64,000 nucleotides of DNA. Source: Nitrosopumilus sp. (GTDB lineage Archaea > Thermoproteota > Nitrososphaeria > Nitrososphaerales > Nitrosopumilaceae). Both the position numbers and the translations under genes were made by a program. This document shows, in pieces, positions 7,863-24,586 of this stretch; position 1 is the first letter of the stretch, and each line of letters begins with the position of its first letter. The stretch covers positions 352,001 through 416,000 of the forward strand of contig OZ244732.1 of assembly GCA_965219345.1 (NCBI GenBank), given 5' to 3'. The notes beneath the pieces were generated by a model, which had not been told where the DNA came from, did not search any database, and saw only the letters and a program-made list of their open reading frames with translations.

Positions 7863-9959
7863 TTAGAGTCCTATTCGGACATCTAGAATGCGACAACCCT
7901 TTCCCTTCTCCATTACTAATACAGGATTCATATCTAATTCTTTGATCTCTTTAAAGTCAGAAACTAATTGAGATAGTCTCTGAATACATTCAGAGAGTTT
8001 TGATATGTCTGAAGGTTTTTCGCCTCTCACACCTTGTAGGATTTTTTGTGTCTTAATTGATGCTATCATGTCGTCTGCTTCTCTTTCAGTTACAGGCGCT
8101 AGCTTGAATGTTACATCTTTGAGAACTTCTACATAGATTCCTCCCATTCCAAGCATAACCACTGGACCAAATCCAGGCTCGAGTTTTGAACCAATGATTA
8201 GTTCTTTACCACCCTTTACCATCTCTACAATCAAGACACCTTTGATCTCGGCTTTCTTGTTGTAATTTTTAGCATTTTTGATAATTATTTTGAATGCATC
8301 TTTGATCTCAGATTCATTTGTCAAGTTTACTTTAACACCACCTGCATCAGATTTATGAATAATTTGAGGTGATGCAATCTTCATCACTACTGGATAACCA
8401 ATCTTCTTTGCAATTTTTACTGCTTCAGCTTCTGTTGTAGCAAGCGCACTTGATGGTAGCGGTAAACCATATGCTTTGAGAATTTCTTGTCCTTCTTCTT
8501 CCAGTAGATTTGGTCTCTTTTCTTTTTTAGCTTGATCAAAGATTTTCTTGACTTTTTCTTTGTTTACTTTGAATTTGGTAATTTTTCCAGTTGGAGCTTT
8601 AACCCAGTTTGAAAATCTAATCATTGCCGCAAGGGTTCTGATTGCTCCCTCGGCATATGTATAATATGGAACATTTCCTTTTGCCAAAATTTCTCTGTTG
8701 GTAATTCCTTCATCTAATCCCATCAAGCTTGCAAGCATGGTCTTTTTGTATTTCTTTGACATCTCAACAATAACTTCTGCAAGTTTATCATAATCTAGAG
8801 TTCCAGAAGGAGTACACATTGTGATAACAGAACCAACTTTTGGATGTTTGAGTACACGGTCCAAAACATTATTGAATCTGTTAAAATCAGCATCACCTAC
8901 AATGTCAACAGGGTTTCGGGAGCTTCCCCAAGGTGGAATTACCTCGTCAATTTTTTTTCTAATACTTGTAATGTCTGCCATCTTGATTTTTGTCTTAGAA
9001 CATGCATCAGTAGAGATGATTGCAGGGCCACCTGCGTTTGAAACAATTACAAGATCACCAGCTGATGGTAGTGGCTGTTTAGAAAATGCTGTTGCATAAT
9101 CAAAGAGTTCTTCCATAGTATCAACTCTGATTGCACCAGACTGTTTCAGCACAGCATCATAGATTTCATCAGAGCCCATCAAGGCTCCAGTATGAGACAT
9201 TGCAGCCTTTGCGCCTTCTGGGCTACGTCCTGATTTAAGAACAAGAATTGGTTTTTTGAGTTTTTTAGTAATATTTTTACAAACTTTAAGGAATTCCTGA
9301 CCATTTCCCATGTCCTCGAGATACATTACAATAACTTCGGTTTGTTTATGATTTGCAAGTATCTTTAGAATGTCAACTTCGCTCATTGAAGCTTTGTTTC
9401 CAAGACTAATTACTGCAGAAAAGCCAATTCCTTGAGCGCTAGCATCCTCAACCAATGCGGCACATATTGCACCACTCTGAGATACAAGTGCAATTTTTCC
9501 AGATCTTGGTGTAATTTTAAGAAATGTTGAATTCATCATTGTCTTTGGATCAAGATTCATGACACCAAGACAGTTCGGTCCAATGATTTGGACTTTGTAT
9601 TTTTTAGCTATGTCCTTGAGTTCTTGTTCACGTTTTGCGCCTTCTTCATCAACTTCTTTGAATCCAGCTGTGATGATAATGACACCTTTAATTTTTTTCT
9701 TGCCACACTCTTCCACCACTTGTCCAACCAGTGTATTTTTGATAACAATAACTGCAAGATCAATTGGTTTAGGAACATCTAAGACACTCTTGTATGCTTT
9801 TTTGTAAAAGACTGTGTCTCTTGAGGGACTAATTGGATAAACAATTCCTTTGAAACCATTCATAATGTTTGAGGTAATGGTAGCTCCAACACTTCCTCTC
9901 TTGTCAGATGCACCAATTACTGCAATTGATTTTGGTGATAAAAAGACAGATTCAGCCAT
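7863..9959 (-). CDS. ADP-forming acyl-CoA synthetase, probably 4-hydroxybutyrate-CoA ligase
   Basis: CoA-binding N-terminus, GPNCLG, SHTG phospho-His, ATP-grasp C-terminus; directly upstream of the dehydratase. Confidence 0.88.
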   Translation of the reverse strand: MAESVFLSPKSIAVIGASDKRGSVGATITSNIMNGFKGIVYPISPSRDTVFYKKAYKSVLDVPKPIDLAVIVIKNTLVGQVVEECGKKKIKGVIIITAGFKEVDEEGAKREQELKDIAKKYKVQIIGPNCLGVMNLDPKTMMNSTFLKITPRSGKIALVSQSGAICAALVEDASAQGIGFSAVISLGNKASMSEVDILKILANHKQTEVIVMYLEDMGNGQEFLKVCKNITKKLKKPILVLKSGRSPEGAKAAMSHTGALMGSDEIYDAVLKQSGAIRVDTMEELFDYATAFSKQPLPSAGDLVIVSNAGGPAIISTDACSKTKIKMADITSIRKKIDEVIPPWGSSRNPVDIVGDADFNRFNNVLDRVLKHPKVGSVITMCTPSGTLDYDKLAEVIVEMSKKYKKTMLASLMGLDEGITNREILAKGNVPYYTYAEGAIRTLAAMIRFSNWVKAPTGKITKFKVNKEKVKKIFDQAKKEKRPNLLEEEGQEILKAYGLPLPSSALATTEAEAVKIAKKIGYPVVMKIASPQIIHKSDAGGVKVNLTNESEIKDAFKIIIKNAKNYNKKAEIKGVLIVEMVKGGKELIIGSKLEPGFGPVVMLGMGGIYVEVLKDVTFKLAPVTEREADDMIASIKTQKILQGVRGEKPSDISKLSECIQRLSQLVSDFKEIKELDMNPVLVMEKGKGCRILDVRIGL

Positions 9960-10024
9960 GTAAGTTGGATCTAAGGATTTTATATAATAAAGTTATTCAT
10001 AGAAATTTCCGATCTATGATTTTT

Positions 10025-10381
10025 TTAGCTTCCCAACATTTTTCCTGCCAGATTCTCTTTTCTAGGAATCCATACAATTGAAAGATTAGAAAATTTTCCC
10101 ATAATACCCCAAGCCTCTCGTGCCAGAATTCGAAGTTGTTCATTATTAATTGCAAATTCATGATTCAATTGATTTACAGTATTTTTAGAATCACTGTAAA
10201 TAATAATTCCATCATTTGAATCAACAAACTTGTTTAACGCAGAGATTATTGCCAAGTATTCAGCTTGATTGTTTGTTAGCTCTGGTTTTTTTTCATAAAA
10301 TGATTCTCCTGTATCTTTTACAAAGTATCCGTACCCACTATCAGGACCTCCAGAACCATCAACGTAAACGCTAATTCCCAT
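10025..10381 (-). CDS. rnhA: Ribonuclease HI
   Basis: YVDGSG, TNNQAEY, SDS, WIPRKEN motifs. Confidence 0.88.
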   Translation of the reverse strand: MGISVYVDGSGGPDSGYGYFVKDTGESFYEKKPELTNNQAEYLAIISALNKFVDSNDGIIIYSDSKNTVNQLNHEFAINNEQLRILAREAWGIMGKFSNLSIVWIPRKENLAGKMLGS

Positions 10382-10849: not shown

Positions 10850-11134
10850 TTAGTCCAAGGTAATCTTTAGGAATATTATCAATCCTGCAAGTTCTGCAAT
10901 TCCTACTCCTAACATATATGGGAAAATTTCATTAGAGAAAATCATCTCTATTGAGAAATAAGCTAGACCACCAATGACATTATGCAAAAACAACATAACA
11001 GTAACAACAATCATGCCTAATGGAAGCTGTGCCCGGGTCTTGCCATACATCTTTCCAAATATAGCAATTAGAATTCCAAGTATGCCCATATTTGCAATTG
11101 AGACAATAGACAAGACTAGTGAGGTAGGTTCCAT
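10850..11134 (-). CDS. Small 3-TM membrane protein
   Basis: 94-aa hydrophobic ORF downstream of an HTH regulator. Confidence 0.7.
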   Translation of the reverse strand: MEPTSLVLSIVSIANMGILGILIAIFGKMYGKTRAQLPLGMIVVTVMLFLHNVIGGLAYFSIEMIFSNEIFPYMLGVGIAELAGLIIFLKITLD

Positions 11135-11159
11135 TTAGTGAAAAACACCTCTTGAGCTT

Positions 11160-11462
11160 TTATTTACTTTTGTCCAATTTTAGTTCAATTTCTTCAAAAG
11201 CCTCCATATTTACTTCAAGGAAGGTGGAAATGAAAAATGTAATGCCGTATTTTTCCCCAACCTTAGTGATCATGTTATTTTTTTCAAGTACCCTAACATG
11301 ATGTTGAATAGCCTTGTAATCTAGGCCTAGCTCTTTTGCCAGTTGATTAGTATTAAGTGGATTTTCCTTTAATTTTGAGATAATTTTTAATCGATTCAGT
11401 CCTCCCCGTGAAGCTGCAAATACAAACCAAAGCAGTCTTTTTGAGTCAGGATCATTTGCCAT
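11160..11462 (-). CDS. ArsR-like winged-HTH transcriptional regulator
   Basis: NTNQLAKELGLDYKAIQHHVRVLEKNNMI. Confidence 0.88.
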   Translation of the reverse strand: MANDPDSKRLLWFVFAASRGGLNRLKIISKLKENPLNTNQLAKELGLDYKAIQHHVRVLEKNNMITKVGEKYGITFFISTFLEVNMEAFEEIELKLDKSK

Positions 11463-11564
11463 GAGTAATGAAAATTCTTCTAGTTTACTACTAAAAGGTA
11501 TTTTGTGGTTGAGTCAAAATAGAAACTATAAAAAACATAATCAAGCAAATTTCTTTGAAATTAA

Positions 11565-12446
11565 ATGATGTTAAACTATGATGCCCCATTGTATAGGCCA
11601 CCTTCAGAATCAAGATCATTGATTTTCCAAATAACATTAGGTTGTTCATTTAATGAATGTTCTTTTTGTGATATGTATAGATCAAAAGAGTATTCTGAAA
11701 GAACATGGGATGAGGTAAAAGCAGAAATTGATATGATGGCAAATTATTTGCCTGACACTAAAAGAGTATTTCTTGCAGATGGTGATGCATTGAATCTTGA
11801 TTCTGAGTACATGATAAAAATTGTAAAATACATTAAAGAAAAATTTTCAAAGCTTGAAAGAATTTCATGTTATGCAATGCCAATGAATATTCTAAAGAAA
11901 ACACCTGAAGAATTAAAGAAGATGAATGAAGCTGGGCTGGACATGTTCTATCTAGGAATTGAAAGTGGTTCTGACATTGTTCTGAAAAAAGTAACAAAGG
12001 GAGCTATTGCAAAGACAATTACAAAATCTGTCAACAAGGCAAAAGACGCAGGTTACATAATGTCATGCATGGTAATTTTGGGATTGGGTGGAAGAACATA
12101 TTCTAAAGAACATATCAAAGGTACTGCCGAAGTGATCAGTGCATGTTCACCACAGTATGTGGGAGCTTTGACCCTATATCTGGAAAAGGGAATAAAGCAA
12201 GAATTTCTTGACAAATTTGAAGAACCATTCATTAGAATTAATGATGATGAATCATTAGAAGAACTTCATAATTTGATTAGCCAGATCAAAACTAAAGACG
12301 AGATTATTTTTAGAGCAAATCATGGTTCAAATGCATATACAGTTAAGGGTACTTTCCCACAGGACAAACAAGAAATGTTGGATAGAATAGAATGGATGAA
12401 ACAACATCCAGAAATTATGCGTCCAGAGGGATTACGAGGATTTTAA
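11565..12446 (+). CDS. Radical SAM protein
   Basis: CSFNECSFC variant cluster motif, YRPPSE, FLADGDAL. Confidence 0.9.
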   Translation: MMLNYDAPLYRPPSESRSLIFQITLGCSFNECSFCDMYRSKEYSERTWDEVKAEIDMMANYLPDTKRVFLADGDALNLDSEYMIKIVKYIKEKFSKLERISCYAMPMNILKKTPEELKKMNEAGLDMFYLGIESGSDIVLKKVTKGAIAKTITKSVNKAKDAGYIMSCMVILGLGGRTYSKEHIKGTAEVISACSPQYVGALTLYLEKGIKQEFLDKFEEPFIRINDDESLEELHNLISQIKTKDEIIFRANHGSNAYTVKGTFPQDKQEMLDRIEWMKQHPEIMRPEGLRGF

Positions 12447-12758: not shown

Positions 12759-13271
12759 ATGAATGACAAATTACCATACTTGGAAAGTAAATTACAATTA
12801 ATCTCAAATGTTTTGACTACGAAAAGATATGCCGCAATTGGAGTAATTAGCGGGGTGGGATTAGGAATAATCTATTACTTTTTGACAATGTCAATGCTAC
12901 CTACTCACTTTGATGCTACAATAAAGATAATGCCTTCTTACATTGCTACATCAATTGGGGTAACTATAGTAATTTCAGCCTTGGCTGGAATCAATTTTGC
13001 GTTAATGGCTTTTAAGATAAAGAAGATGAAGATGATGAATTCTGTGAAATCAAACTCTTCAGCTGTATTAGGAGGGGCTTTTGTAGCATTTACTCCAGGA
13101 TGTCCTGCATGTACTGCACCTCTAGCAGTAATTTTAGGCGCAGTTGGAGGATTGTCATTGTTTCCAATGCTGGGATTAGAGTTGAAATTCATCTCAGTAG
13201 CAGTTCTCATATTTTCTATTTATTGGATTACAAGAGGACTGCAAAGCAATAGTTGTTGTAAGATTGGATAG
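12759..13271 (+). CDS. Membrane protein with intramembrane CPAC motif
   Basis: About 4 TM segments, GCPAC, terminal CC. Confidence 0.75.
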   Translation: MNDKLPYLESKLQLISNVLTTKRYAAIGVISGVGLGIIYYFLTMSMLPTHFDATIKIMPSYIATSIGVTIVISALAGINFALMAFKIKKMKMMNSVKSNSSAVLGGAFVAFTPGCPACTAPLAVILGAVGGLSLFPMLGLELKFISVAVLIFSIYWITRGLQSNSCCKIG

Positions 13272-13526
13272 ATTATCACATGGGAATTTTATTTAGATTT
13301 GAACAAAAATTAATCATAGAAAGACGGTAAACACACCGTTCAATCCTTGAGAGAGGCATTGAATGAATTTATTTTGAATATGTTACCGATCTTCTATTGT
13401 TCATTTGTGAAAAATTAATAAGTTAATCTAAGTTAATGCGGGATCCCTTTTATGATAGAATTGATCGCTAAAGCATCCCGCATTTGGAGATATATTGTTA
13501 TATTGTACAAGTAATAATATCATATT

Positions 13527-13670
13527 ATGAGTAGACGTGTTACAATCATGATTGATGAAGATCTTGACAAAAAACTTAGACTCCGTCAAGCAAAAATGAT
13601 TCAACAAGAACAATCATCATATAGCTATTCTAAAGTATTGAATGAAACCCTTCGTAAAACTTTGAAATAG
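13527..13670 (+). CDS. Small ribbon-helix-helix-like protein (47 aa; below the ORF-track cutoff)
   Basis: Manual translation MSRRVTIMIDEDLDKKLRLRQAKMIQQEQSSYSYSKVLNETLRKTLK. Confidence 0.7.
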   Translation: MSRRVTIMIDEDLDKKLRLRQAKMIQQEQSSYSYSKVLNETLRKTLK

Positions 13671-13746
13671 TTTTTCAAATCCTTACAGGTTTGAACTTTT
13701 ATTGATAAGGGATACTTTTTGACGTACAAAATATGGTTAATTTGTT

Positions 13747-13776
13747 CCAATATAGGGGATGGGCCCCACGGGGATT
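13747..13776. repeat. Distal att site (degenerate copy of tRNA-Val 3' end and trailer)
   Basis: CCAATATAGGGGATGGGCCCCACGGGGATT versus CCAATATAGAGGATGGGCCCACGGGGATT at 23403-23431 (1 substitution, 1 insertion). Confidence 0.9.
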
Positions 13777-13819: not shown

Positions 13820-14845
13820 TTATGAAAAAGTATCAGTTTCAGATAGCTTAATTTCTTTCAAACGTTCATAATTTTCAGTTGGTTCATTCCAATAATTAAA
13901 TTCCCAAAAATATGAAAATTGTTTTGCATAATCTTTTTCATCTATCTTATCAGCAGTACTGGATGTTACACAAAATGGAGAACCTGATGTTCGATACATT
14001 GGTTCTAAACCCAGAGGACATGCAATAAGATCCAGCATTGTTGATAGTATTCGATTTCCTGATTGTTGATATGTAGATTGTTCTTTCAGGGATGGAATTT
14101 TTATATCGTTAGGATAAATATCTGGTTTAAAATCATCTTCATTCCATCCCCATATTGAACTTTGTATCCCATCTACCTTGTATACATTAGGCATTATGCA
14201 TGAATCAAATTGTAATTGATCATGATACTTTAGATATAACAAAACTTCTTCTCCGATTTCTGGATCTATGAAATAACCATGTGAAAATTGTTGGCTGTAG
14301 AGTTTAGATTTTTCAATTCCAAACACATCGATTTTATTTTGTGTAACATTTCCTTTGTAAACTGTATCTACCATCATTTCTATCCTAAATGGAATTTTTA
14401 ATTCACTATTTTGGAGAAAATCTTCATTCTCTTTTATTTGTGTAGTAACTCGATCTGGCATATACCACTCCATATGAATGTCCCACCAATAATTTTTCAA
14501 AGATTCAGAAAATGCGGGTTCTAGTAACTTTTCAATATGTTGTAATCTTTCAGACAAAGGTATTGTTTTATTTGCTAACATTGACACAAATTCTTCATTT
14601 GCAGTAAACAAATTACATGGATTTTCTGAATTTGTATCATTATAGTGAGATAATGCATCAGCACCATATGATTTACCAATAATTTTTCCTGATACTATGG
14701 TATCAGACTGAAACCAAATTTCTGCAGACAATACAGCATCACCTGGTGCTCTACACGGATAAGGACCAGCACATCCAGCATCTACATCTAGAATTGGAAA
14801 TAATGCAAATAGAACTAATGGAATTACTACCCAAATTAGTCTCAT
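13820..14845 (-). CDS. Secreted protein with a Cys-pair module
   Basis: Signal peptide; SLKEQ...CPLGLEPMYRTSGSPFCVTSST module. Confidence 0.75.
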   Translation of the reverse strand: MRLIWVVIPLVLFALFPILDVDAGCAGPYPCRAPGDAVLSAEIWFQSDTIVSGKIIGKSYGADALSHYNDTNSENPCNLFTANEEFVSMLANKTIPLSERLQHIEKLLEPAFSESLKNYWWDIHMEWYMPDRVTTQIKENEDFLQNSELKIPFRIEMMVDTVYKGNVTQNKIDVFGIEKSKLYSQQFSHGYFIDPEIGEEVLLYLKYHDQLQFDSCIMPNVYKVDGIQSSIWGWNEDDFKPDIYPNDIKIPSLKEQSTYQQSGNRILSTMLDLIACPLGLEPMYRTSGSPFCVTSSTADKIDEKDYAKQFSYFWEFNYWNEPTENYERLKEIKLSETDTFS

Positions 14846-14900
14846 CCTATTCCCTAACCTCGTTCAATTAATGATACTTTCGTATTTTGTATCACACAAT

Positions 14901-15344
14901 TTAGCCTCCAACACTCCCTCCAATGTGTCTTGCACTTTTCACACCATCAATACTCTCAAAACTTTTAGTTAATAGTTCCTCATCTTTCCAAAAGCCACTA
15001 ATGGTGATAATATACAGGTTATCAAGTGTTTCATTATTTGTGAATGTTCATACTTGCAGAGGATGAGGTAAATTATTTTTATAATCAAAAGCGGATTCTA
15101 TCTTAATTATCTTAAATTTTTCATCATAGATGGTAGTAGTTCCAGAAAACATTTTTTCTAATTTATCTTTTGGAAAAGAGATCATATCATATTCTACAAG
15201 CCAACGTTCTGTATGATGGATTATCTCATCAGACTCTATTGGAATAGCTGAAAAATAAATCCCAATTCCTCCAACTACAAAAATGGCAACAAGTGGAACT
15301 AAAATCAATAATGTTTTCAAGATATTATCAAATTTAACAATCAT
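14901..15344 (-). pseudogene. Membrane-anchored protein with in-frame TGA at 15048-15050
   Basis: Frame stays open 48 codons past the TGA (TFTNNETLDNLYIITISGFWKDEELL...GSVGG*). Confidence 0.6.
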
Positions 15345-15407
15345 TTATTCATAAAGTATACTATTTTTGCGTGATCTAACTACAGATTACGAAGAAATCA
15401 CATCAGA

Positions 15408-15872
15408 CTAAAGATAAGGACCACAATCAGGATTACAGAAGACAAATGCCACAGCATAGTAATTTCCTTCATATGTAATATGATATCCAAATGCCTCAGG
15501 ATTTTCAATATAATTTTCTGATATATTCTCAAATGCTATAATTAATTCTCGAGCATCAGAATTTTTTAAACTAGTAATAGATGCAGAAATAATTTCTCCA
15601 TATCTTTGTGATTCTGGCATACTTTTAACATCATCCAAACTATCTCGAAGTATTGGATAATTTCTTACCAAATTATCCACTTGAACGTATTGTTTAGTTG
15701 AATCGTATTTGGCTTGATCAACTAATAGATGTACAGTGCTAAAATAATCAACAGGAGTAAGAGACCCTAGTATGTATCCCATGAATAATACTGAAATTAT
15801 CACAGACGCTAAAATTATTATGATTGAAATTTTTTTCTTAGACATCATATGTGCTAACTCCTTTAATTTCAA
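15408..15872 (-). CDS. Membrane-anchored hypothetical protein
   Basis: N-terminal TM helix, 154-aa ORF. Confidence 0.65.
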   Translation of the reverse strand: MKLKELAHMMSKKKISIIIILASVIISVLFMGYILGSLTPVDYFSTVHLLVDQAKYDSTKQYVQVDNLVRNYPILRDSLDDVKSMPESQRYGEIISASITSLKNSDARELIIAFENISENYIENPEAFGYHITYEGNYYAVAFVFCNPDCGPYL

Positions 15873-15908
15873 TTAATCGTGATTCAGGTATAAAATTGAT
15901 TAATAATT

Positions 15909-16785
15909 TCATGAATTATTCTCCTTTCTAGCTTTTAATTTTCTTTTAACAATAAAGACAACAATTCCTGCAACTAATAGTATTGGCATTACAAGTATTA
16001 CAAAATAGGATCTGAGAAAAAAATTCAAGCCATTAACTGCTAAATACATATACCAATCATCAGGTTCATCTTTATACTGAGAAAGATCTATTTCTTGAAT
16101 AATATACAAATCATTTTGGCCAAACGAAGTTATAGAAAAATAACCAAAATCAGTATTCATACTTCCTCCAATCATTCCATCGCCTATGAATAAACGTACA
16201 TCTACATAGTTTGGATCTCTTGACGTACCTTTCCAAAGGGAATCAACTACAGAATGCTTGTTTACAGTAATTGATTCACCAAACATATTAAACAAAATTG
16301 TATCAGAATCAAACGCAGTCATATTTACTTTAGCAAATTCATGAAGATTCATATCAGAAGATAATGCTACGTTTTTAGTTTCATTATTATAGATGAATAG
16401 TTCAGAAATTCTCTCAGGAATAATAAAATTTGGTTCAAGAATTACATCATAAGAATCAGTTGGAAACTGACTTTGTATTTCATTTCTAGATAAATAATAA
16501 CTGTATACATTACGATTTTCTCTTTTATCTGTTACCCATTCTTTAAGTACCTTTTTCTAACGCTTGATTCATTTCAATTTTTTTTGTTTCCATCCAATCT
16601 GCACCTTTGTAATCATAATATCCATACCATGCATTATAAAATTCAGAGTGACTAAATGGATTTGTATCAATGCATGGAGCAGATGGCCAATCTTTATCCT
16701 CTACACACAATGCAAAACCATCTTGCATTCCAATTATTCCAATCAAAACCAATGAAATTACTAGCCAAACTAATCTAAATTGCAT
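15909..16785 (-). pseudogene. Secreted, C-terminally anchored protein split by a frameshift near 16545
   Basis: ORF 16785-16543 continues in a shifted frame (LKEWVTDKRENRNVYSYY...ALSSD) without stops into ORF 16352-15909. Confidence 0.75.
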
Positions 16786-16943: not shown

Positions 16944-18077
16944 TTAGTTTGAAAAAATTTCTTTGATTAAGAAGATCTGTTCAACTGGTGTTTGATTGAG
17001 AATATTTTTGTTAAAATTAAGATCAGGCATAGAATTAAGAAGATTTATTCTTAATTCATTTTTATCATCTGCATCATATCCAAGAATTTCTAAATATGAT
17101 TTCATTACAGATGAAATTTTGGCAACTATTTCATTTTTTGAATTAGACTCATCAAAAAATTTTTGTAAATAAACGGTATAAAACCATACCAACAAAATAT
17201 CAGAGATATGTTCAGTTTTTTTGTAAGGTTGAGATGTATTGAGATATGTACCTTTGAAAGAACCAAAGATTCCTACATATTCAGTGACAGTAGTAATCTG
17301 AGCATCAAATGATAATAAACTAGGAATTGAAGACTGAATTGTATCAAGAATACTTTTTACATCGTAACGTCCATTATCATAGATTTGGGATTTGAATGTA
17401 GTAAGATTCAAAAAAACCTGAAGAGATTCATCAATATCTTTTTCAGAAGCAAATTTCAATAATGATGCTATATCGTATACTTGTTTTGGAATATCATCGG
17501 ACAAATTTCCAATTTTTGGTTTTAATAATCCAATCTTGTTTAGAGATAAAGTAGTTATTTTATCTCCAATTAATGCACCACGAGTTAAAATCTTTGAAGA
17601 ATAATCAATTTTGAATTCAATTACTTCATCACCATTTGCAGTTGATTGGGTGGGCAGTTCTAAAGGCATATCGCACATATAATCAACTTTTACTGTTTCA
17701 TCACTTCCAAAACAAGAATGGTATTTTACATAATACGTAACTAAATTTGGAATAGGTGCAAGATTTTTAGGATTATGTTTTTTTATATTTACATCAGGTA
17801 AGTTTGAATCTAAGTTTTGCATAATTGATTCAATTTCATCAACTTGTAATCTAGTAAGTAAATCAATATCTATACTTAAACGTCTAATTCCTAACGCAGT
17901 ATGAAAAGGAACACACATACCTCCTCTCAATGTACTATCAATTTCTTGTGATATATGATAATTCATTTCAAAATCCATAATAAATTTCTCAACATATATA
18001 GGATTTGCAAAATTAAATTTAGTTGTAATACTTTCAATATTATTTTTCTCAAGCTCATTTACAAAATGATATACCAT
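16944..18077 (-). CDS. AbiEii/AbiGii-family nucleotidyltransferase (type IV TA toxin-like)
   Basis: LRGG, RRLSIDIDLL, DKI, KQVYDI motifs. Confidence 0.82.
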   Translation of the reverse strand: MVYHFVNELEKNNIESITTKFNFANPIYVEKFIMDFEMNYHISQEIDSTLRGGMCVPFHTALGIRRLSIDIDLLTRLQVDEIESIMQNLDSNLPDVNIKKHNPKNLAPIPNLVTYYVKYHSCFGSDETVKVDYMCDMPLELPTQSTANGDEVIEFKIDYSSKILTRGALIGDKITTLSLNKIGLLKPKIGNLSDDIPKQVYDIASLLKFASEKDIDESLQVFLNLTTFKSQIYDNGRYDVKSILDTIQSSIPSLLSFDAQITTVTEYVGIFGSFKGTYLNTSQPYKKTEHISDILLVWFYTVYLQKFFDESNSKNEIVAKISSVMKSYLEILGYDADDKNELRINLLNSMPDLNFNKNILNQTPVEQIFLIKEIFSN

Positions 18078-19987
18078 CAGTCAACATTTCCAAAGTATTT
18101 TTCTAGATCAGTTAACACGTTCTTGTGTCTACCCATTATTTCTAATCTATGTTGATTTGTTAAGTTATTTTCTAGTAAATAATCTAAAATATTTCCTAAT
18201 TCATCATTCCGAATATGATATGAACCACGTTTAATTTCTAAGAATAAGTCCAACCAAGCTTTATCAGGTGAAGCCCAAGTATCTTTTGACACTCTAGAGT
18301 ATTCTCTTATTACAATAAATTTTGTTTTTTCAGAATATTCTAATGCTTTTTTAATATCTTCGGATTTTGGATTTAGAAGAATAGTAAATTCCATTTCACC
18401 ATAATCAAGTATCAAATCATAAAGAAGTTGTCCAGTATTTCTAACTGCATCAATATTGTATATCATTTTGTTATAGGCATTTTGTAAAAATGGAGAAAGG
18501 GTACTTAATGCTGTAAATTGAAAATTAAATTCAAATTTTTCTTTTAAAAATTCATGTAATTCTCCGAGTTCATCAACCAAAGAATATTTTGGTAATGGGA
18601 TTACTCGTTGAGGTTTTCTTTTTGTTATTTTTTCAGGTTTTTCAGACCAATCCATTACAAACTTATTCCAAGAGGAATTTCTTTCCTTCAAAAAATCTGC
18701 ATATTTTCCATGCTCATTTATGATAGTTTTGACTTCTAATTCGATTAATCCTATCAAAAATAATGGATTTCCAATTACAGTAAAAACAGGACTTTTTCGA
18801 TTTATGATAATTTTAAGTCCATTAGGAATTCTTTCAATGTGATATAATTCATCATTGGAGGTATTCTCGAATTCAAATTGAATGTTTTTTGACTCATATT
18901 GAGTGCTAAAGGATTCAGCTTGATTTAGTAAATATTTTGAATTTGTATTACTCATTCTAAGTTTAATTTTTCCTTTAGTTTTATCATTTCCAATATAATT
19001 GAGAACTGATTGTATTGATGTTGTTGAAGGGTTTTTACTTATTGAGCTTCGTAATACATCAACAACTTCAGAGTTAGTTCTAAATGCATCTACTGCTTCT
19101 TTGTATTCTAAAGATTCTTCAATAAATCCAGTTTTATGAAAATTTACTGGAACATGATCAAGATGCAATTCACCTGTAATTTTTGCGACTTCAGGGTGAT
19201 TTCGAATACCAAATTTATCAAATGCTTTAATCAATCTTTGATTTTTATACAAATGAATTCCATAATCACCTTTTATCGAACGTTTTTCTAATAATCCAAT
19301 CCATCCTTTTAGATAGTAATCATGAGTTAGTTCAATGTCAATTTCTTGTTTACTTCCTTCAAGTATACGAAGTTCAACTGGTTTACATTCTCGTGTGTTA
19401 ATGTATAATGATATTTGGTTTGATTTTATGTAAGAACCATATCTTATACCAAAATTTTTTCTTAATCGAGTTGTTTGATTTGGGTATAATGGAACATTCA
19501 ATTTTGAGATTTTAATGATTGTTCCATTCCAAGGTTGTGTTTTTTTACTGGTCTCAATTTCAAAATTTTTCCATGTTTGAGATGAATCTTTTAACCATTC
19601 TTCTTCATCATAATGAATAAAATATTCTAGATCAGTATTATTTTTGGATGTTGTAATTGTGAATTCTCTTCCAAGAGTTGAACAAGCACTTTTCATTCCT
19701 AATCCAAATTTTCCTAGTTTTTCTTTTTCCAGTTTTGTTCCTTTCGCTATAGTCAATCCTTTTTCTAATTCTTCAAGGTTCATTCCTTGTCCATCGTCAG
19801 ACACTGAGATGGTTTTTCCTCCATAGTCTAACATTACATCAATTCGTTCAAGCTCGTGTGGAATTCTGGCATCTATAGAATTATCTAATAATTCTGAGAT
19901 AGCCTCAGCTGTTCTATATCCAGTGAGTCCTAATTTTTGGATTAGACTTTTGTCAGGTGTAATATCCACGGTTGTTTTCTCTGTCAT
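18077..19987 (-). CDS. GHKL (MORC/HATPase_c_3-like) ATPase with AbiEi-like C-terminal region
   Basis: ELLDNSIDA, DDGQGM, GKFGLGMKSA, GT motifs; S5-like region; C-terminal ASPDKAWLDL. Confidence 0.8.
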   Translation of the reverse strand: MTEKTTVDITPDKSLIQKLGLTGYRTAEAISELLDNSIDARIPHELERIDVMLDYGGKTISVSDDGQGMNLEELEKGLTIAKGTKLEKEKLGKFGLGMKSACSTLGREFTITTSKNNTDLEYFIHYDEEEWLKDSSQTWKNFEIETSKKTQPWNGTIIKISKLNVPLYPNQTTRLRKNFGIRYGSYIKSNQISLYINTRECKPVELRILEGSKQEIDIELTHDYYLKGWIGLLEKRSIKGDYGIHLYKNQRLIKAFDKFGIRNHPEVAKITGELHLDHVPVNFHKTGFIEESLEYKEAVDAFRTNSEVVDVLRSSISKNPSTTSIQSVLNYIGNDKTKGKIKLRMSNTNSKYLLNQAESFSTQYESKNIQFEFENTSNDELYHIERIPNGLKIIINRKSPVFTVIGNPLFLIGLIELEVKTIINEHGKYADFLKERNSSWNKFVMDWSEKPEKITKRKPQRVIPLPKYSLVDELGELHEFLKEKFEFNFQFTALSTLSPFLQNAYNKMIYNIDAVRNTGQLLYDLILDYGEMEFTILLNPKSEDIKKALEYSEKTKFIVIREYSRVSKDTWASPDKAWLDLFLEIKRGSYHIRNDELGNILDYLLENNLTNQHRLEIMGRHKNVLTDLEKYFGNVD

Positions 19988-19988
19988 G

Positions 19989-20102
19989 TCAAGATCTTAC
20001 GGCGCTATTTGTAGCATATTTTAGCAATATAACATATACATTATAAAATTTGACAAATGTTATATGCTAAATTGATCACAGATTAGCAATGTAAGATCTT
20101 GA
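19989..20102. promoter_or_regulatory. Long imperfect palindrome in a divergent promoter region
   Basis: TCAAGATCTTAC (19989-20000)/GTAAGATCTTGA (20091-20102) and TTTAGCAATATAACAT (20020-20035)/ATGTTATATGCTAAA (20057-20071) share one centre. Confidence 0.65.
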
Positions 20103-20179
20103 TCACAATGTATAAGCAGAGTTATAATTCTTAGCTCATTTGTATAATCAGGGAATTAAGCCTGATTTAAGGAATAAAA

Positions 20180-21007
20180 ATGCGTAAAATACAAATTTGT
20201 ATTTTACGCAAAAATAGTATGGATGTTGAGCTCAAAAACAGATTATTAGAAATTTTTTTCGATAGCTCAAACCGTCCAAAAAAGACTCCAAGACATGAAT
20301 CATCCATACAGATAATGTTAGAAAAAAGATATTCAGTAAGTCAGGTAAAAAATGCACTAAATAATTTAGAAGAAGTAGGAATTCTGCAATCTTTCAAGTA
20401 TGATATTAGAGATGTAGGTAATGCAAGATTCTATTTTCCAGCAAAACTATCAATGGAATTTGTGGAAAAAAATATGGTAAAAAAAATGGAAAAAGCAGCA
20501 TATTGGATTTCCAGATACTCTGATGTCAAGACAGTAAAGATGGTAGGTGAACAGCTTCATTATCTTGTTAAAAATGAGTTACGTGCAAATGGATTTGAAA
20601 TTCTGAAAGAAAAACATGCTAGATCATACAGAGGAAAAGAATGGTTTAGAACTAAACACACATTAGATATTATTGCAGAACATAAAATAAAAAAAATAGC
20701 AATAGGCGTAGAAATAAAAAATATGTTAAGTCAAACGCCAAAATCAGAGATTGTCGCTAAATTAGAGATGTGTAAAGTTTTAGGAATATATCCAATATTT
20801 GCATGTAGATGGCAAGAAATACATCTAGATATAATTCAGGAAGAAGAAGGATTGTTATGGCAATTTAAAGATCAGATCTATCCATTTGGACAAGAAAATT
20901 TAGTATTAGAATTACAAAAAAGATTTGAATTACCAGTTATTGTTAAAGGGGAACTACCAAAAGAGTCAATAGATATTTTTCATAAATGGATGAAGAAATT
21001 TGAATAG
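20180..21007 (+). CDS. Winged-HTH plus PD-(D/E)xK nuclease-like protein
   Basis: N-terminal QVKNALNNLEEVGIL; C-terminal LDIIAE...GVEIKN. Confidence 0.65.
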   Translation: MRKIQICILRKNSMDVELKNRLLEIFFDSSNRPKKTPRHESSIQIMLEKRYSVSQVKNALNNLEEVGILQSFKYDIRDVGNARFYFPAKLSMEFVEKNMVKKMEKAAYWISRYSDVKTVKMVGEQLHYLVKNELRANGFEILKEKHARSYRGKEWFRTKHTLDIIAEHKIKKIAIGVEIKNMLSQTPKSEIVAKLEMCKVLGIYPIFACRWQEIHLDIIQEEEGLLWQFKDQIYPFGQENLVLELQKRFELPVIVKGELPKESIDIFHKWMKKFE

Positions 21008-21182: not shown

Positions 21183-21743
21183 TCATGTGCCTTTATTTGT
21201 AAATATCACTAACCGTCCATTACATTTCTCTTTACAAAATGGAGATTCAGAACATGTTATCATCTTAAGTGCACTATCAATGATTTGTGAACCATGCCTA
21301 AATTTCTTGTAGCATAGATAAGTTATGGAATCTCGTGCATCATTGTAATCCAATTCATTATCAATTGAAGGTCTATCACCACACGGTAAAAGACGCTCAA
21401 TCAAATACAATTCTGTTACTTGAGATGCTTCTCTGTTTGCATCTATCTGCTCGTTTGGTTGTGTTTCTTTGTTTATTTTCCCCTCTTCCTCTCCCAGAGA
21501 TGCAGAAACCCATTTTTTGTTAGAGATTATTTTATCATGTGCAATAGTCTGTAATTCTGCACTGTATTTCTTGAGTTGATTGCATCTAGCATGGGACCAA
21601 GCTAGATTCCAGTCAGGATCATCATCAATGAAGGGCTGATCATCAAATATGCAAGTATGTTCTGCATTACTAGAATAATCACGTTCAATAATTATAGGAG
21701 TAAGTTTTGCTTTTTTGTTTAGTGTTAGTTGCTTAGTATTCAT
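21183..21743 (-). CDS. Hypothetical element protein with a degenerate HNH-like segment
   Basis: CIFDDQPF..NLAWSHARCNQLK. Confidence 0.55.
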   Translation of the reverse strand: MNTKQLTLNKKAKLTPIIIERDYSSNAEHTCIFDDQPFIDDDPDWNLAWSHARCNQLKKYSAELQTIAHDKIISNKKWVSASLGEEEGKINKETQPNEQIDANREASQVTELYLIERLLPCGDRPSIDNELDYNDARDSITYLCYKKFRHGSQIIDSALKMITCSESPFCKEKCNGRLVIFTNKGT

Positions 21744-21764
21744 GACGCATTACTTGTTTTTGTC

Positions 21765-21956
21765 TTAGGGGGAAAAATTTGAAAGAATTAGTTTTTTCTG
21801 AATGATAAACATCCGAAATTCTTCATTAGATTCATTTGTAAAACAACTTTTGCAAATCTTTAAGATTTGATGATCAACATCAGAACCACAATTGTAAGAA
21901 ATTTTAAAATCTGCATCATTATTGCAAGTTTTTAGTTGGCAATAATCACTCGTCAA
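21765..21956 (-). CDS. Small zinc-finger protein
   Basis: CQLKTC...CKSC. Confidence 0.6.
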   Translation of the reverse strand: MTSDYCQLKTCNNDADFKISYNCGSDVDHQILKICKSCFTNESNEEFRMFIIQKKLILSNFSP

Positions 21957-22131
21957 TTTCTTCAGAGTCAGTAATATTTGGAATTAAAGAACCATGTACA
22001 ATATCAAGTGCTGTTCTTAACAAGATTTGACATGCTTGACTTTTAGTTAGATAACCGCGTTTAGAATTAATTTCTTTAACTAAATTTGGTGGAAGAGAAA
22101 TTGTAATACAAATAGATTTATTGTTATTCAA
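21946..22131 (-). CDS. Ribbon-helix-helix DNA-binding protein
   Basis: ITISLPPNLVKEINSKRGYLTKSQ pattern. Confidence 0.65.
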   Translation of the reverse strand: MNNNKSICITISLPPNLVKEINSKRGYLTKSQACQILLRTALDIVHGSLIPNITDSEEIDE

Positions 22132-22144
22132 TAAAAAATAAATT

Positions 22145-23371
22145 CTACTTAGAATTTATGTATATTGATTTTAAGAAATGTTTAAGATATTTACTTTTTT
22201 CGGTCTTAAGACTTCTTAATTCAGTAAATTTTTTCATAAGTTTAGTTTCAATTTCTTTTATCGATTGTTTTTTCCAAATTGAAAATTCAGTTGAAATTTT
22301 TTCTAATTCAATTTGTTTTTGTGCAGCAGCAGAAATAGTCAGAAATGGAATTGCCTTTTGATATTCTGGAAATCGCTCAAAATCTTCTTCCTGATAGCGT
22401 TCATAATGCTTTTCAAGCCCAATTTTATGACCCATCATATCTTCCTTATCCAGATAGTCTACTTTTGCGCGTCTAAGCATTGTATTGAAATATTTTCTGA
22501 ACCCATGGTCAAGCTGGACTTCATGTCTTCTTACCCCAAGAGGTAATTTAGGTCTCAAATCAATATCAGTTACAATTTTGTCTATTCTCTTTCTTACTCC
22601 TTTTTGAGCAAGTCTTCTAATCACAGGAGTTGCTACTGTTTTGATTAAAGGATCATCTGGTTTTGGATATACACTAATGTCAATCTTCCATCTTTCTCTA
22701 TAAATCTCAAGTATCTTACAAGTTTCAGGAGTGATAAATGTGAAATAACTTTCAGGATCTCCTCTGTAAATTAACAGTGCAGCACCTTTGTATGTTCCAT
22801 CATCATTTTTGAAAAAGATAACATCTTTCCATGTAAAATAATCCCAAGATTCCAGACGAAATCCTCCAGATAAAAACATCAAGATTAAAACCTTGTCTGT
22901 AATGTCATTTGCAACTTCGATCATCTGTTGAATTTCCTCCTTTGTGTATGCTCTGTCTTTTGATTTTGCTTCTATGCGTGGAAGTAATTTGTTTAATGAC
23001 TTCCAATGGATCGGAACACGATTTGCGTCAAGTAGAACTTTGATTGGTTTGATATGGTTTAGAATTGTTTGAGAACTAATCTCACCTAAAGTTACGCGTT
23101 TTCGATCTTCTTTGATAAATGTGGCAATAACATCTAATGCCAAATCCATATCTTTTCTTGCAAGTTCTATAAAGAATTTTGCTAGAGTTACAGCATCTCT
23201 GTTCTTTGGAGTTTTACCAAGTGAGTCTGTATAGATTTGATTTGGAATTAATTTAAGAAATGAATGGAGATGATTCTTGTAACGTCTAAGAGTTGCAGGA
23301 CTTCGAATTGAATCTAAGAATAATTAGTAAGGATCAGAACGAGTTTTGATCTTATCAAGTGAAATTTCCAT
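22145..23371 (-). pseudogene. Tyrosine recombinase/integrase with a premature TAA at codon 16
   Basis: GGFR, HGFRK, MMGH, HY catalytic motifs; N-terminus reads MEISLDKIKTRSDPY*LFLDSIRSPATLRRY in frame (TAA at 23324-23326). Confidence 0.88.
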
Positions 23372-23415
23372 ACTATAGGCATGAATGCATCCTATTTGAG
23401 TCCCAATATAGAGGA

Positions 23416-23490
23416 TGGGCCCACGGGGATTTGAACCCCGGACCTTCGCCGTGTAAGGGCGACGTCATAACCGACCTGGACCATGAGCCC
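23416..23490 (-). tRNA. tRNA-Val(UAC)
   Basis: GGGCTCA...TGGGCCCA; anticodon arm TCGCC-CTTACAC-GGCGA; TTCAAAT T-loop. Confidence 0.95.
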
Positions 23491-23569
23491 AGAGACTTAC
23501 CTTGTTAAAATCCATTTAAACTTTGAGACACAGGAAAATCTAGAAATTTGACAAAAAGTTAAGAAATTC

Positions 23570-24586
23570 ATGAATGTTTTTGATTTTTTTTCTAGTCCAA
23601 TTGGATTAGGTCATGTCACTCGAGATATCGCAATTGCAAACAATTTTGAGAATAATTCAACAAATTTTGTGTCAGGCAGTGGAGCTGCAAAAATTCTAAA
23701 AAATTTAGATTTCAAAGTACAAGATGTATACAAGCCACCTTCGTTTATTGTTGAAAATGGTACATTAAAGAGCCCAGCAAAATGGCTATGGAATTATTAT
23801 CAATACTATAAAGATTGTAAAAAAATTTCACAAAAGATTCTTCAAGAAGATAATCCAAATTTGGTAATTAGTGACGAGGATTTTGCATCATTAACTGTTG
23901 CACAAAAAATGAAAATTCCAACTGTACTTATCACAGATGTTTTAGAGACTCGCTTCACTAAAGGATTAATATCATTTATTGAAAAAAAGATGAATAAATC
24001 AATGCAAGAAATTATAAAAAAATGTGACATAGTTATTCTTCCTGAGAACGGAAATGATGAAGACAACATCAAAAAAGTAGGACCAATAGTTAGACAAACA
24101 AACTTTTCAAGAGAAGATCTACGAAAAAAATTTTCGTTTGAGAAAAAAACAATAGTTATTTCAATTGGAGGAACTGATGTAGGATTATTTCTTATTAAAA
24201 AAGCATTAGAATCTATTTCAAAAATCAATCAAGACATCGAAGTTGTTCTAGTGTCAGGTCCAGCAATTAGTAAAAAATTTGAGAATGTTAGAAATTTTGG
24301 ATTTGTTGATAATTTACACGAGTTGATTTTTGCTGCAGATTTAATAATTTCTCTGGCCGGAAAATCAACCATAGATGAGGCTAACGCCTATGGGACCCCT
24401 GCAATATTCATACCCATAAAGGGTCATTTTGAGCAAGAAGACAACGCAAGAGAAGAAGGATTTGCTTTTGATGATATTAAAAGACTGGATGTGCTAATTT
24501 TAGAAAAACTTGAACAAAAAAGAAATAGAGTAAACACTAATGGTGCAAAAAATGCATCTAATATAATTAGAGAATTGATGAATTGA
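23570..24586 (+). CDS. GT-B glycosyltransferase (MurG/GT28-like)
   Basis: GLGHVTR, SIGG, AGKSTIDEA, HFEQ motifs. Confidence 0.85.
   Translation: MNVFDFFSSPIGLGHVTRDIAIANNFENNSTNFVSGSGAAKILKNLDFKVQDVYKPPSFIVENGTLKSPAKWLWNYYQYYKDCKKISQKILQEDNPNLVISDEDFASLTVAQKMKIPTVLITDVLETRFTKGLISFIEKKMNKSMQEIIKKCDIVILPENGNDEDNIKKVGPIVRQTNFSREDLRKKFSFEKKTIVISIGGTDVGLFLIKKALESISKINQDIEVVLVSGPAISKKFENVRNFGFVDNLHELIFAADLIISLAGKSTIDEANAYGTPAIFIPIKGHFEQEDNAREEGFAFDDIKRLDVLILEKLEQKRNRVNTNGAKNASNIIRELMN

Follow-up and report, generated by a model that had tools for sequence, protein, structure and literature searches.

Toxin-antitoxin pairs of the DUF1814-COG5340 kind, which include AbiE (AbiEi-AbiEii) of Lactococcus and Streptococcus agalactiae and MenAT3 and TakA-TglT of Mycobacterium tuberculosis, have been assigned to type IV and are now proposed to be type VII systems. 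In PMC3632139, they are described with helix-turn-helix (HTH) antitoxins only. The AbiEi-family antitoxin TakA neutralizes the DUF1814 toxin TglT via phosphorylation of S78, which lies in the active site beside R76 and D82 (PMC7205606). MenA antitoxins induce auto-phosphorylation of MenT (PMC11375011), and AbiEi of S. agalactiae binds AbiEii and likewise induces its auto-phosphorylation, for which a conserved loop of the antitoxin is needed (bioRxiv 10.64898/2026.01.19.700257). Here we describe a related pair of genes in a stretch of 64,000 nucleotides (nt) from Nitrosopumilus sp. (contig OZ244732.1, positions 352,001 to 416,000; hereafter the window, in which all positions without a prefix are counted). 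One gene codes for a MORC-type GHKL ATPase that ends in an AbiEi-like domain, and the gene following it codes for an AbiEii-type nucleotidyltransferase.

We consider it probable that the two genes constitute an AbiE/MenAT-type toxin-antitoxin module carried by an element integrated at a tRNA-Val gene, in which the C-terminal tail of the fusion protein restrains AbiEii and the MORC head takes the place of the winged helix-turn-helix (wHTH) domain as a DNA-cued gate. Toxicity, neutralization, DNA sensing, and defence are all presumed here by analogy with characterized systems.

The MORC-type fusion protein and its AbiEii partner

The fusion gene (18077-19987, minus strand), delimited as an open reading frame (ORF) with homologs, encodes a protein of 636 amino acids (aa), the presumed antitoxin or regulator. 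The gene downstream of it (16944-18077, minus strand) encodes a 377-aa AbiEii/DUF1814-type nucleotidyltransferase, the presumed toxin. In the sequence, the two genes meet in a TGATG junction (18075-18079, minus strand), in which the MORC stop codon and the AbiEii start codon have one base in common, an arrangement of tight translational coupling. Across 18 loci, the first possible AbiEii start lay between -61 and +7 nt from the MORC stop. A preliminary description of the window had named these two ORFs and a divergent one of 275 aa, all of which are present, and had read from their translations complete GHKL motifs, an S5-like region, and a GG..RxSxDxD nucleotidyltransferase signature. The GHKL motifs and the signature were borne out by the analyses below, and the S5-like region was matched weakly.

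The N-terminal part of the 636-aa protein contains a GHKL (Bergerat-fold) ATP-binding domain (residues 24-129; 19601-19918, minus strand), which matched HATPase_c_3 with an E-value of 3.8e-21 and 76 bits (cut-off, 25). It is followed by a putative S5-fold region of the MORC kind (residues 223-293; 19109-19321, minus strand), whose match to Morc6_S5 was weak (E 3.3e-4; 21.1 bits, below the cut-off of 26.2). Among ten rescanned homologs, only P0011 exceeded that cut-off (29.2 bits), and the other nine scored from 13.9 to 25.7 bits. The closest solved relatives by sequence were human MORC4, MORC3, and MORC2, with an E-value of 3.2e-9 for MORC4 (7k7t) when the single sequence was used. A profile of 41 sequences gave E-values from 1.2e-16 (7k7t) to 4e-9 for the same three proteins, and the MORC4 and MORC3 chains were matched in two stretches. 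Topo VI-B, PMS1, HtpG, and MutL scored 6e-5 or worse with this profile.

The search for homologs of the 636-aa protein found 431 at E<=1e-3. Among the 120 homologs listed, the query coverage was mostly 94-100%, with five partial or cut records at 67-89%, and the source labels among the matches listed were merely "ATP-binding protein" or "hypothetical protein". The GHKL residues E32, D35, N36, D64, G66/G68, G92, G95, G97, and G155/T156 were invariant or nearly so in an alignment of 41 homologs. We take E32/N36, D64-G68, G92-G97, and G155/T156 to represent GHKL motifs I-IV.

Behind the S5 region, the model of the protein displays a family-specific alpha/beta middle domain (residues ~347-447; 18647-18949, minus strand) consisting of a four-stranded sheet and flanking helices, with a predicted local distance difference test score (pLDDT) of 75. 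A possible likeness of this domain to zincin-like proteins was discarded: the best solved match, 2ejq_B (Z 6.6), was in the common chance range, and no HExxH was seen in the sequence. The linker between the middle domain and the tail (residues ~440-470) was modeled with low confidence. The nearest relatives lacking the tail are the 548-aa MORC proteins of loci L035 and L036, with 39% identity over the first 300 residues. In L035 (L035:718-4414), the tail-less MORC gene lies between a gene for a C-5 cytosine DNA methylase and a gene for an AAA_15/ABC-type ATPase, and the upstream ORF sizes in L036 are the same as in L035. Such a restriction-type neighborhood is what the main text of PMC2292703 (Iyer, Abhiman, and Aravind 2008) reports for prokaryotic MORCs.

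The last part of the 636-aa protein (residues ~472-636; 18080-18574, minus strand) was assigned as a DUF6577/AbiEi-C-terminal-like domain, the presumed toxin-neutralizing part. Among the 120 homologs listed, 16 carried a precomputed match to PF20217 (DUF6577). Ten chosen from these 16 were rescanned, and all ten matched positions ~35-200 of the 204 positions of DUF6577 through their last ~165 residues with E-values from 1e-8 to 2e-5. Five of the ten exceeded the family cut-off of 27.8 bits (P0006, 28.8; P0011, 35.5; P0018, 31.4; P0052, 28.9; P0064, 29.0), as did P0157 in a separate scan (41.1 bits). A profile built from 24 tails (A2) and searched against 1.84 billion representatives found 226 proteins at E<=1e-3. 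Among the 150 matches listed, 26 were 619-676 aa long with the domain at the very end, and many others were 230-310 aa long with the domain after a short N-terminal part. Seven long proteins were scanned (five of those 26 and two full-length homologs), and all seven contained the GHKL domain.

The short stand-alone proteins provided the link to known antitoxins. An alignment of 64 of them (A5) was made without proteins shorter than 200 aa and without the top-scoring rows of 229-278 aa (as far as P0154), apparently fragments of the fusion. DUF6577 was found in 59 of the 64, the AbiEi_4 wHTH in 18, and other HTH families in a handful. Profile-profile comparison by hhalign aligned A2 with A5 over 165 columns with a probability of 99.9% and an E-value of 5.3e-36, and the tail corresponded to columns 80-246 of 283, that is, to the part behind the wHTH. 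In addition, a tblastn search of plasmids with the stand-alone protein P0232 found four genes annotated as "DUF6577 family protein", two of them in Hymenobacter and one each in Chondrinema and Bernardetia. Immediately downstream of every one lies a gene annotated as "nucleotidyl transferase AbiEii/AbiGii toxin family protein". This gene order places DUF6577 at the antitoxin position of AbiE-type pairs. The same search with another stand-alone protein, P0200, gave no match in plasmids. Shorter homologs of the tail were also sought; the four matches obtained were set aside as pieces of the fusion family, judging by their length and identity. An atlas search with the tail returned unnamed clusters at 0.88-0.92 and no lead.

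The structure predicted for the tail agrees with this assignment. In a comparison of its AlphaFold2 model (pLDDT 85.2; predicted template modeling score 0.79) with 48,161 solved chains by VIA-align, the top match was 6y8q_A, the AbiEi antitoxin of S. agalactiae (Z 8.6; root-mean-square deviation 3.0; 120 residues), and the matched residues, 57-195 of the chain, are its C-terminal part. The next matches were MenT1 (Z 6.9), ANT(2'') (6.4), MenT4 (5.2), and the AbiEi-family protein Rv2827c (1zel, 5.2). No HTH family was above its Pfam threshold in the 636-aa protein. These results support the view that the tail is an AbiEi C-terminal domain homologous to DUF6577, the domain with which the antitoxins of one AbiEi-type subfamily end. 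They also uphold what the preliminary description had suggested from the letters, namely that the last ~170 aa are AbiEi-like and that the usual HTH has been replaced with a MORC ATPase. As a separate observation, the model (window 18080-18670) resembles toxins of the same systems as well, with TglT at Z 4.9 in addition to MenT1 and MenT4. The antitoxin and toxin domains of the AbiE/MenAT kind may, as far as the models go, share an ancient fold.

The 377-aa protein matched PF08843 (AbiEii) with 30.6 bits, above the cut-off of 22.5, and its match to the AbiEii model of PADLOC was weak (E 0.0042). It contains GG at 52-53, RRLSIDID at 65-72, DK at 172-173, and K198/D202. No variation was seen among 16 partners at ten residues (G52, G53, R66, S68, D70, D72, D172, K173, K198, and D202). 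Their equivalence to the residues mutated in TglT (PMC7205606) is read from the pattern of the motifs rather than from an alignment to TglT. Ser68 is likely the phospho-acceptor.

Serine kinases with the GHKL fold are known from the anti-sigma factors SpoIIAB and RsbW. The GHKL module of the fusion protein might, by extension, itself be the kinase that phosphorylates Ser68, with the DUF6577 tail serving as a docking adaptor only. Such a role would suit the invariance of Ser68 in the 16 partners, the fusion of what appears from its sequence to be an intact ATP-binding GHKL domain to a toxin-binding domain, and the neutralization of this toxin family through phosphorylation of an active-site Ser/Thr (PMC7205606, PMC11375011, bioRxiv 10.64898/2026.01.19.700257). 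However, a MORC-like ATPase followed by an S5 region is the architecture of a dimerizing ATPase and not that of a GHKL protein kinase, and current work favors auto-phosphorylation of the toxin without a kinase (PMC11375011, bioRxiv 10.64898/2026.01.19.700257). We therefore regard a GHKL kinase as highly unlikely.

A complex of AbiEii with the tail was also predicted. It passed the mark set for the interaction prediction score from aligned errors (ipSAE), with a median of 0.72 over three runs (0.00, 0.72, and 0.72) and 0.00 for the best control. Of 80 solved complexes, 58 attained the same mark, as did 2 of 110 mismatched pairs; these counts are rough because our own alignments were used. The runs agreed in at least 0% of the contacts, and the pLDDT of the partner was at least 78. 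The pass of this prediction may reflect nothing more than likeness to the solved or reported AbiEi:AbiEii and MenA:MenT complexes.

The predicted contact (toxin residues 259-365 with tail residues 482-528) would lie away from the active site of the toxin. This position, together with the nucleotidyltransferases (MenT1, ANT(2''), and others) among the structural matches of the tail, could also fit a composite enzyme, in which AbiEii, instead of being a restrained toxin, is a working partner of the MORC part and joins with the tail to modify nucleic acid or the MORC protein itself as part of a restriction-like machine. Prokaryotic MORCs, in the text of PMC2292703, usually work with nucleic-acid enzymes. 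The idea conflicts, however, with the stand-alone DUF6577 proteins, which have the AbiEi_4 wHTH and the gene position of an antitoxin, and with the rank of AbiEi as the top structural match of the tail. Furthermore, no conserved nucleotidyltransferase motif (GG, DxD) was found in the alignment of 24 tails, and genes for methylases, helicases, or nucleases were not found as conserved partners at the loci. A composite enzyme thus appears very improbable to us, and the antitoxin-type tail remains the reading that we prefer.

Conservation and spread of the pair

The pair recurs in other genomes, as the preliminary description had left to be checked. The 636-aa protein was found in nine of 401 genomes of the phylum, all from one family, in which the family search found it in 8 of 56 genomes; no genome of the other families had it, and within the genus of the window it is present in only two of 23 genomes. 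The sources of the homologs, where named (five rows among the 120 listed), were Nitrosopumilaceae, Nitrosopumilus, and Thaumarchaeota/Nitrososphaerota. Further loci came from a search with PF20217 at the family level, in which each match fell inside a 619-656-aa frame, and a scan of contigs with patterns from the single query returned L001 alone.

After duplicates were merged and a fragment (L013) was dropped, 15 distinct full-length genomic loci besides the window were available (L001, L003-L012, L014, L016, L017, and L022), two of which (L012 and L022) are near-identical. An AbiEii homolog lies immediately downstream of the MORC gene in ten of the 15. In metagenome contigs, AbiEii was next to a complete MORC gene in nine of nine loci; in this set, L027 and L028 have the same sequence, L031 is cut by the contig end, and four more loci end inside the MORC gene. 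Compared with L001, the ratio of non-synonymous to synonymous substitution rates (dN/dS) was 0.14 for the MORC gene, 0.21 for AbiEii, and 0.19 for the 275-aa gene, with dS of 0.59-0.93. The pair has been kept by purifying selection across Nitrosopumilaceae. That two unrelated genes are neighbors by chance was ruled out, since the pair recurs at MORC gene identities as low as 35%.

Several genomes carry two or three diverged copies of the fusion: G036 (L010, L012, and L014), G421 (L017 and L022), and G147 (L004 and L011). These copies are 35-59% identical to that of the window, and the AbiEii partner is found beside some of them only. In L007 (L007:3405-4856, genome G060), the AbiEii partner is a 484-aa ORF whose last third is aberrant and does not align with the family, likely owing to a frameshift or a fusion. 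In plasmids, a tblastn search with the MORC protein gave partial GHKL matches in four records and no fusion, and a scan of viral contigs with two peptide patterns from the homolog alignment A1 gave no relative.

The tRNA-Val element and the divergent gene

The module of the window lies in an element at a tRNA-Val (TAC) gene (23413-23491, minus strand; detected by ARAGORN), the integration target. A blastn-short search found a 30-nt imperfect direct repeat that includes the 3' end of the tRNA, with 28 of 30 positions identical. The left, attachment-site-like copy is at 13747-13776 (plus strand) and brings a copy of the tRNA-Val 3' end, and the right copy is at 23403-23431 (plus strand), overlapping the 3' end of the gene itself. 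These repeats bound an element of ~9.7 kb. The relative G442 represents the empty site: the homologs of the regions 12759-13271 and 23570-24586 are there separated by ~160 nt with the tRNA alone between them, and the flanking genes are 87-93% identical to those of the window at the protein level. From this spacing, about 10 kb has been inserted in the window. The composition profile displays only a mild dip in G+C content, 27-29% against ~33%.

A tyrosine integrase gene (22145-23371, minus strand) adjoins the 3' end of the tRNA-Val gene. It matched Phage_integrase with an E-value of 2.6e-4 and gave a single tblastn alignment (23353-22286) to the 424-aa integrase of L032. Translation places one in-frame stop at 23324-23326, near the start of the gene, which would make it a pseudogene or require a restart. 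The tRNA-integrated element and its broken integrase, both of which had been noticed from the letters, were thus confirmed. Integrases lie near the fusion in three loci, namely the window, L005, and L032 (upstream in the last). In G287, a genome of a second species of the genus, a MORC-AbiEii pair with 54% identity (L005/L053; G287:C1:1029334-1035837) occupies the same tRNA-Val site, beside an integrase that is split over three frames. Either related elements reached this one site independently, or an old element descended vertically and decayed.

The location of the pair inside an element with a dead integrase, and the integrases near the fusion in the three loci mentioned above, raise the possibility that the pair is a plain addiction module that stabilizes the element and takes no part in virus defence, the MORC part merely replacing the wHTH as a DNA-binding or silencing autoregulator or as a DNA tether. 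Canonical AbiEi autoregulates through its wHTH (PMC7319586), and S. agalactiae AbiE conferred no protection from phages in E. coli (bioRxiv 10.64898/2026.01.19.700257). On the other hand, an ATPase of 470 residues is a costly substitute for a wHTH of 80 residues, and the invariant GHKL motifs suggest that ATP turnover matters. The nearest tail-less relatives are in restriction-type neighborhoods, and two to three diverged copies per genome, as in G036, are more typical of defence genes than of an addiction module belonging to a single element. Taken together, we consider a plain addiction module unlikely, and we continue with the gated module outlined at the beginning.

The gene divergent from the module (20180-21007, plus strand; an ORF of 275 aa) belongs to an unnamed family. 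The intergenic region between the two (19988-20179), with the presumed promoters of both transcription units, contains AT-rich direct and inverted repeats of 8-23 nt, for which no chance expectation was computed. The preliminary description had listed the gene together with the other two. A homolog was found in only three of 24 other loci (L001, L023, and L024), in a survey in which two loci had less than 800 nt of upstream flank. Those three have the closest MORC genes among the fetched loci, save L003 (66% identity), which is without the 275-aa gene. Since the gene is restricted to the closest clade, the module consists of two genes and not three, and the 275-aa gene is better regarded as an accessory neighbor. 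Its product matched no Pfam or NCBIfam family, and the best E-value among solved relatives was 0.1. The matches in PHROGs were weak, the best being phrog_38181 (E 0.0088), a family of no known function. In the atlas, it matched unnamed clusters of 268-290-aa proteins at 0.97 and gave a weak lead to Mrr_cat at 0.86. The earlier label of the protein as wHTH plus PD-(D/E)xK could not be verified.

The remainder of the element offers a few further observations. A segment of ~470 nt (13272-13746) separates the left repeat from the conserved flank gene (12759-13271) and is absent from the empty site of G442. Likeness also extends to the bases immediately to the left of the two repeat copies (CCAATATAG.GGA). 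The segment may have been left behind by an older element once integrated in tandem at the same tRNA-Val site. On the minus strand, 13820-16785 contains five ORFs of 341, 98, 154, 147, and 80 aa, several with hydrophobic N- or C-terminal stretches; the 341-aa product matched no Pfam family above the cut-off. Between the 275-aa gene and the integrase, 21183-22131 (minus strand) contains ORFs of 186, 63, and 61 aa, for none of which was a match found in PHROGs; the 186-aa protein, which has a Cys/His-rich stretch by eye, also had no match in Pfam, NCBIfam, or PADLOC. Downstream of the module in L001, a relative with 85% identity, the region L001:9218-11977 contains two tandem copies of a pair of 96-aa and 274-aa ORFs (9218-10329 and 10866-11977), which may be a duplicated mobile unit.

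Proposed mode of action and comparison with known systems

In the two-gene module that we propose, the antitoxin would have lost the promoter-binding winged helix and gained ~470 residues comprising the MORC-type GHKL ATPase, the S5 region, and the middle domain. By analogy with AbiE, MenAT3, and TakA/TglT, the tail would bind the nucleotidyltransferase and drive phosphorylation of the serine of RxSxDxD (S68), and the toxin would thereby be kept off. Free toxin would, again by analogy, block translation by modifying the acceptor ends of tRNAs. The ATPase would dimerize on ATP and clamp or sense DNA, as MORC/GHKL modules do elsewhere, and the neutralization of newly made toxin by the tail would depend on a DNA-borne cue, which may be virus DNA or the loss of the element. 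A plain toxin-antitoxin pair would in this manner become a sensor-gated abortive-infection module. That ATP-driven dimerization or DNA clamping by the head sets the action of the tail is, we infer, the most economical reading. The more detailed idea that clamping of MORC on foreign (or missing) DNA withdraws the AbiEi-type domain from new AbiEii and releases a tRNA-modifying toxin is tentative, and we consider it possible but rather doubtful.

Several results weigh against our interpretation. The 636-aa protein of the window itself gave no DUF6577 match at E<=1 in Pfam, and its residues 300-636 had no Pfam match at all; the link to DUF6577 therefore rests on the homologs and the profiles. Sequence search of solved structures with the tail profile returned no AbiEi and only chance-level matches (Ral GTPases, E 0.19 and above). 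The AbiEi-like fold that had been proposed for the tail was seen by one structural search and not by the other: Foldseek found nothing in the PDB at E<=0.001, and VIA-align ranked 6y8q first. The Z of 8.6 is just above the best Z of 7-8 typical of models without a clear match, with nucleotidyltransferases close behind. This score, modest by itself, counts because it fell on the predicted target, ranked first, and agrees with the sequence comparison and the gene order. In the prediction of the complex, one of the three runs scored 0.00, and the interface avoids the active site. AbiEii is truncated in two of the 15 genomic loci (L003 and L009), and a search of the 1.5-kb flank detected none in three others (L004, L008, and L014), which means that the fusion can persist alone. 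The three toxin-less loci fit an orphan antitoxin and also leave room for an independent function of the MORC protein. Finally, in E. coli, S. agalactiae AbiE gave no protection from any of 32 phages (bioRxiv 10.64898/2026.01.19.700257).

AbiE/MenAT pairs belong to the most common toxin-antitoxin modules, and their way of sensing a trigger is not yet settled. The exchange of a wHTH for a MORC module points to an ATP-driven trigger mechanism that can be tested for AbiE/MenAT. DUF6577, a family without a function, gains a concrete role as an antitoxin domain, and prokaryotic MORCs, so far from restriction-like operons, gain a class of toxin-antitoxin partners. The module is also a recurrent mobile one in Nitrosopumilaceae, abundant marine nitrifiers whose virus defences are poorly known. 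If the release of the toxin is indeed gated by MORC, this would be the first MORC that directly gates a toxin and a widespread, unrecognized innate immune module of ammonia-oxidizing archaea, and it would connect a toxin-antitoxin circuit of prokaryotes with the parts that MORCs play in immunity and silencing in eukaryotes.

A MORC-fused AbiE/MenAT antitoxin conserved in ammonia-oxidizing archaea is undescribed in the papers and libraries that we searched. PADLOC 2.0.0 does not list the architecture, for which it gave only a partial MzaB match and the weak AbiEii match, in line with the earlier suggestion that the system is not catalogued. Literature searches on MORC/GHKL with AbiE, on prokaryotic MORCs against phages, and on integrated elements of thaumarchaea found no description of a MORC-AbiE pairing, and DUF6577 was not found in a full-text search. 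Among the matches listed, the terms AbiE and GHKL/MORC co-occur only incidentally in the passages of PMC3632139 and PMC3710099. The main text of PMC2292703 has neither "nucleotidyltransferase" nor "toxin" nor AbiE, and that of PMC6563490 neither nucleotidyltransferase nor AbiE; the supplementary neighborhood tables of the former and the supplementary element gene lists of the latter could hold such a pair. The MzaB match (PADLOC PDLC02204 and NCBIfam NF041932, of the MZA system) is confined to the N-terminal ~100-125 GHKL residues, with E-values of 1.1e-8 and 8.3e-13. Membership in MZA was rejected: the score of 47.5 bits is far short of the cut-off, which is 850, the match covers no more than residues 18-140, and no Mza partners were present.

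The closest described systems are AbiE, MenAT3, and TakA-TglT, with which the module of the window shares the order of the bicistron, the antitoxin gene coming first and overlapping the next. The toxins are alike in being DUF1814 nucleotidyltransferases with GG and RxSxDxD, including the phospho-acceptor Ser, and the model for the window antitoxin's C-terminal domain is closest to AbiEi (6y8q). In contrast to these systems, the window antitoxin has no N-terminal wHTH, for which reason we do not file it as a canonical AbiEi, and carries the ~470 residues of MORC-type ATPase, S5 region, and middle domain instead. Its C-terminal domain is assigned to the DUF6577 branch, for which profile searches of sequences gave no link to the solved AbiEi, and its host is an archaeon. 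The plasmid-borne pairs of stand-alone DUF6577 (PF20217) and AbiEii/AbiGii in Hymenobacter, Chondrinema, and Bernardetia have the same C-terminal domain in the same upstream position. They differ in that their DUF6577 proteins are 256-262 aa long, have no ATPase, and are annotated as a family of unknown function; similarly sized relatives from the profile search begin with a short wHTH, AbiEi_4 being present in the 18 of 64 noted above.

From the other side, the prokaryotic MORCs and paraMORCs described in the main text of PMC2292703 have a GHKL plus S5 module, to which the head corresponds in its GHKL part with all ATP-binding motifs and probably in its S5 region. The patchy, mobile distribution is also shared, and in paraMORC3-5 another functional domain is likewise fused C-terminally to this module. 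Their partners, however, are a helicase, a nuclease, or a methylase, whereas the partner in the window is a toxin-antitoxin nucleotidyltransferase. A GHKL head thought to control a C-terminal conflict domain is also reported for VcSduA, a Shedu protein with an N-terminal GHKL ATPase (PMC12137116), and for paraMORC-HEPN fusions (PMC3710099). In those proteins, the controlled domain is the effector nuclease itself, whereas in the window it would be an antitoxin-type domain that in turn controls a separate toxin.

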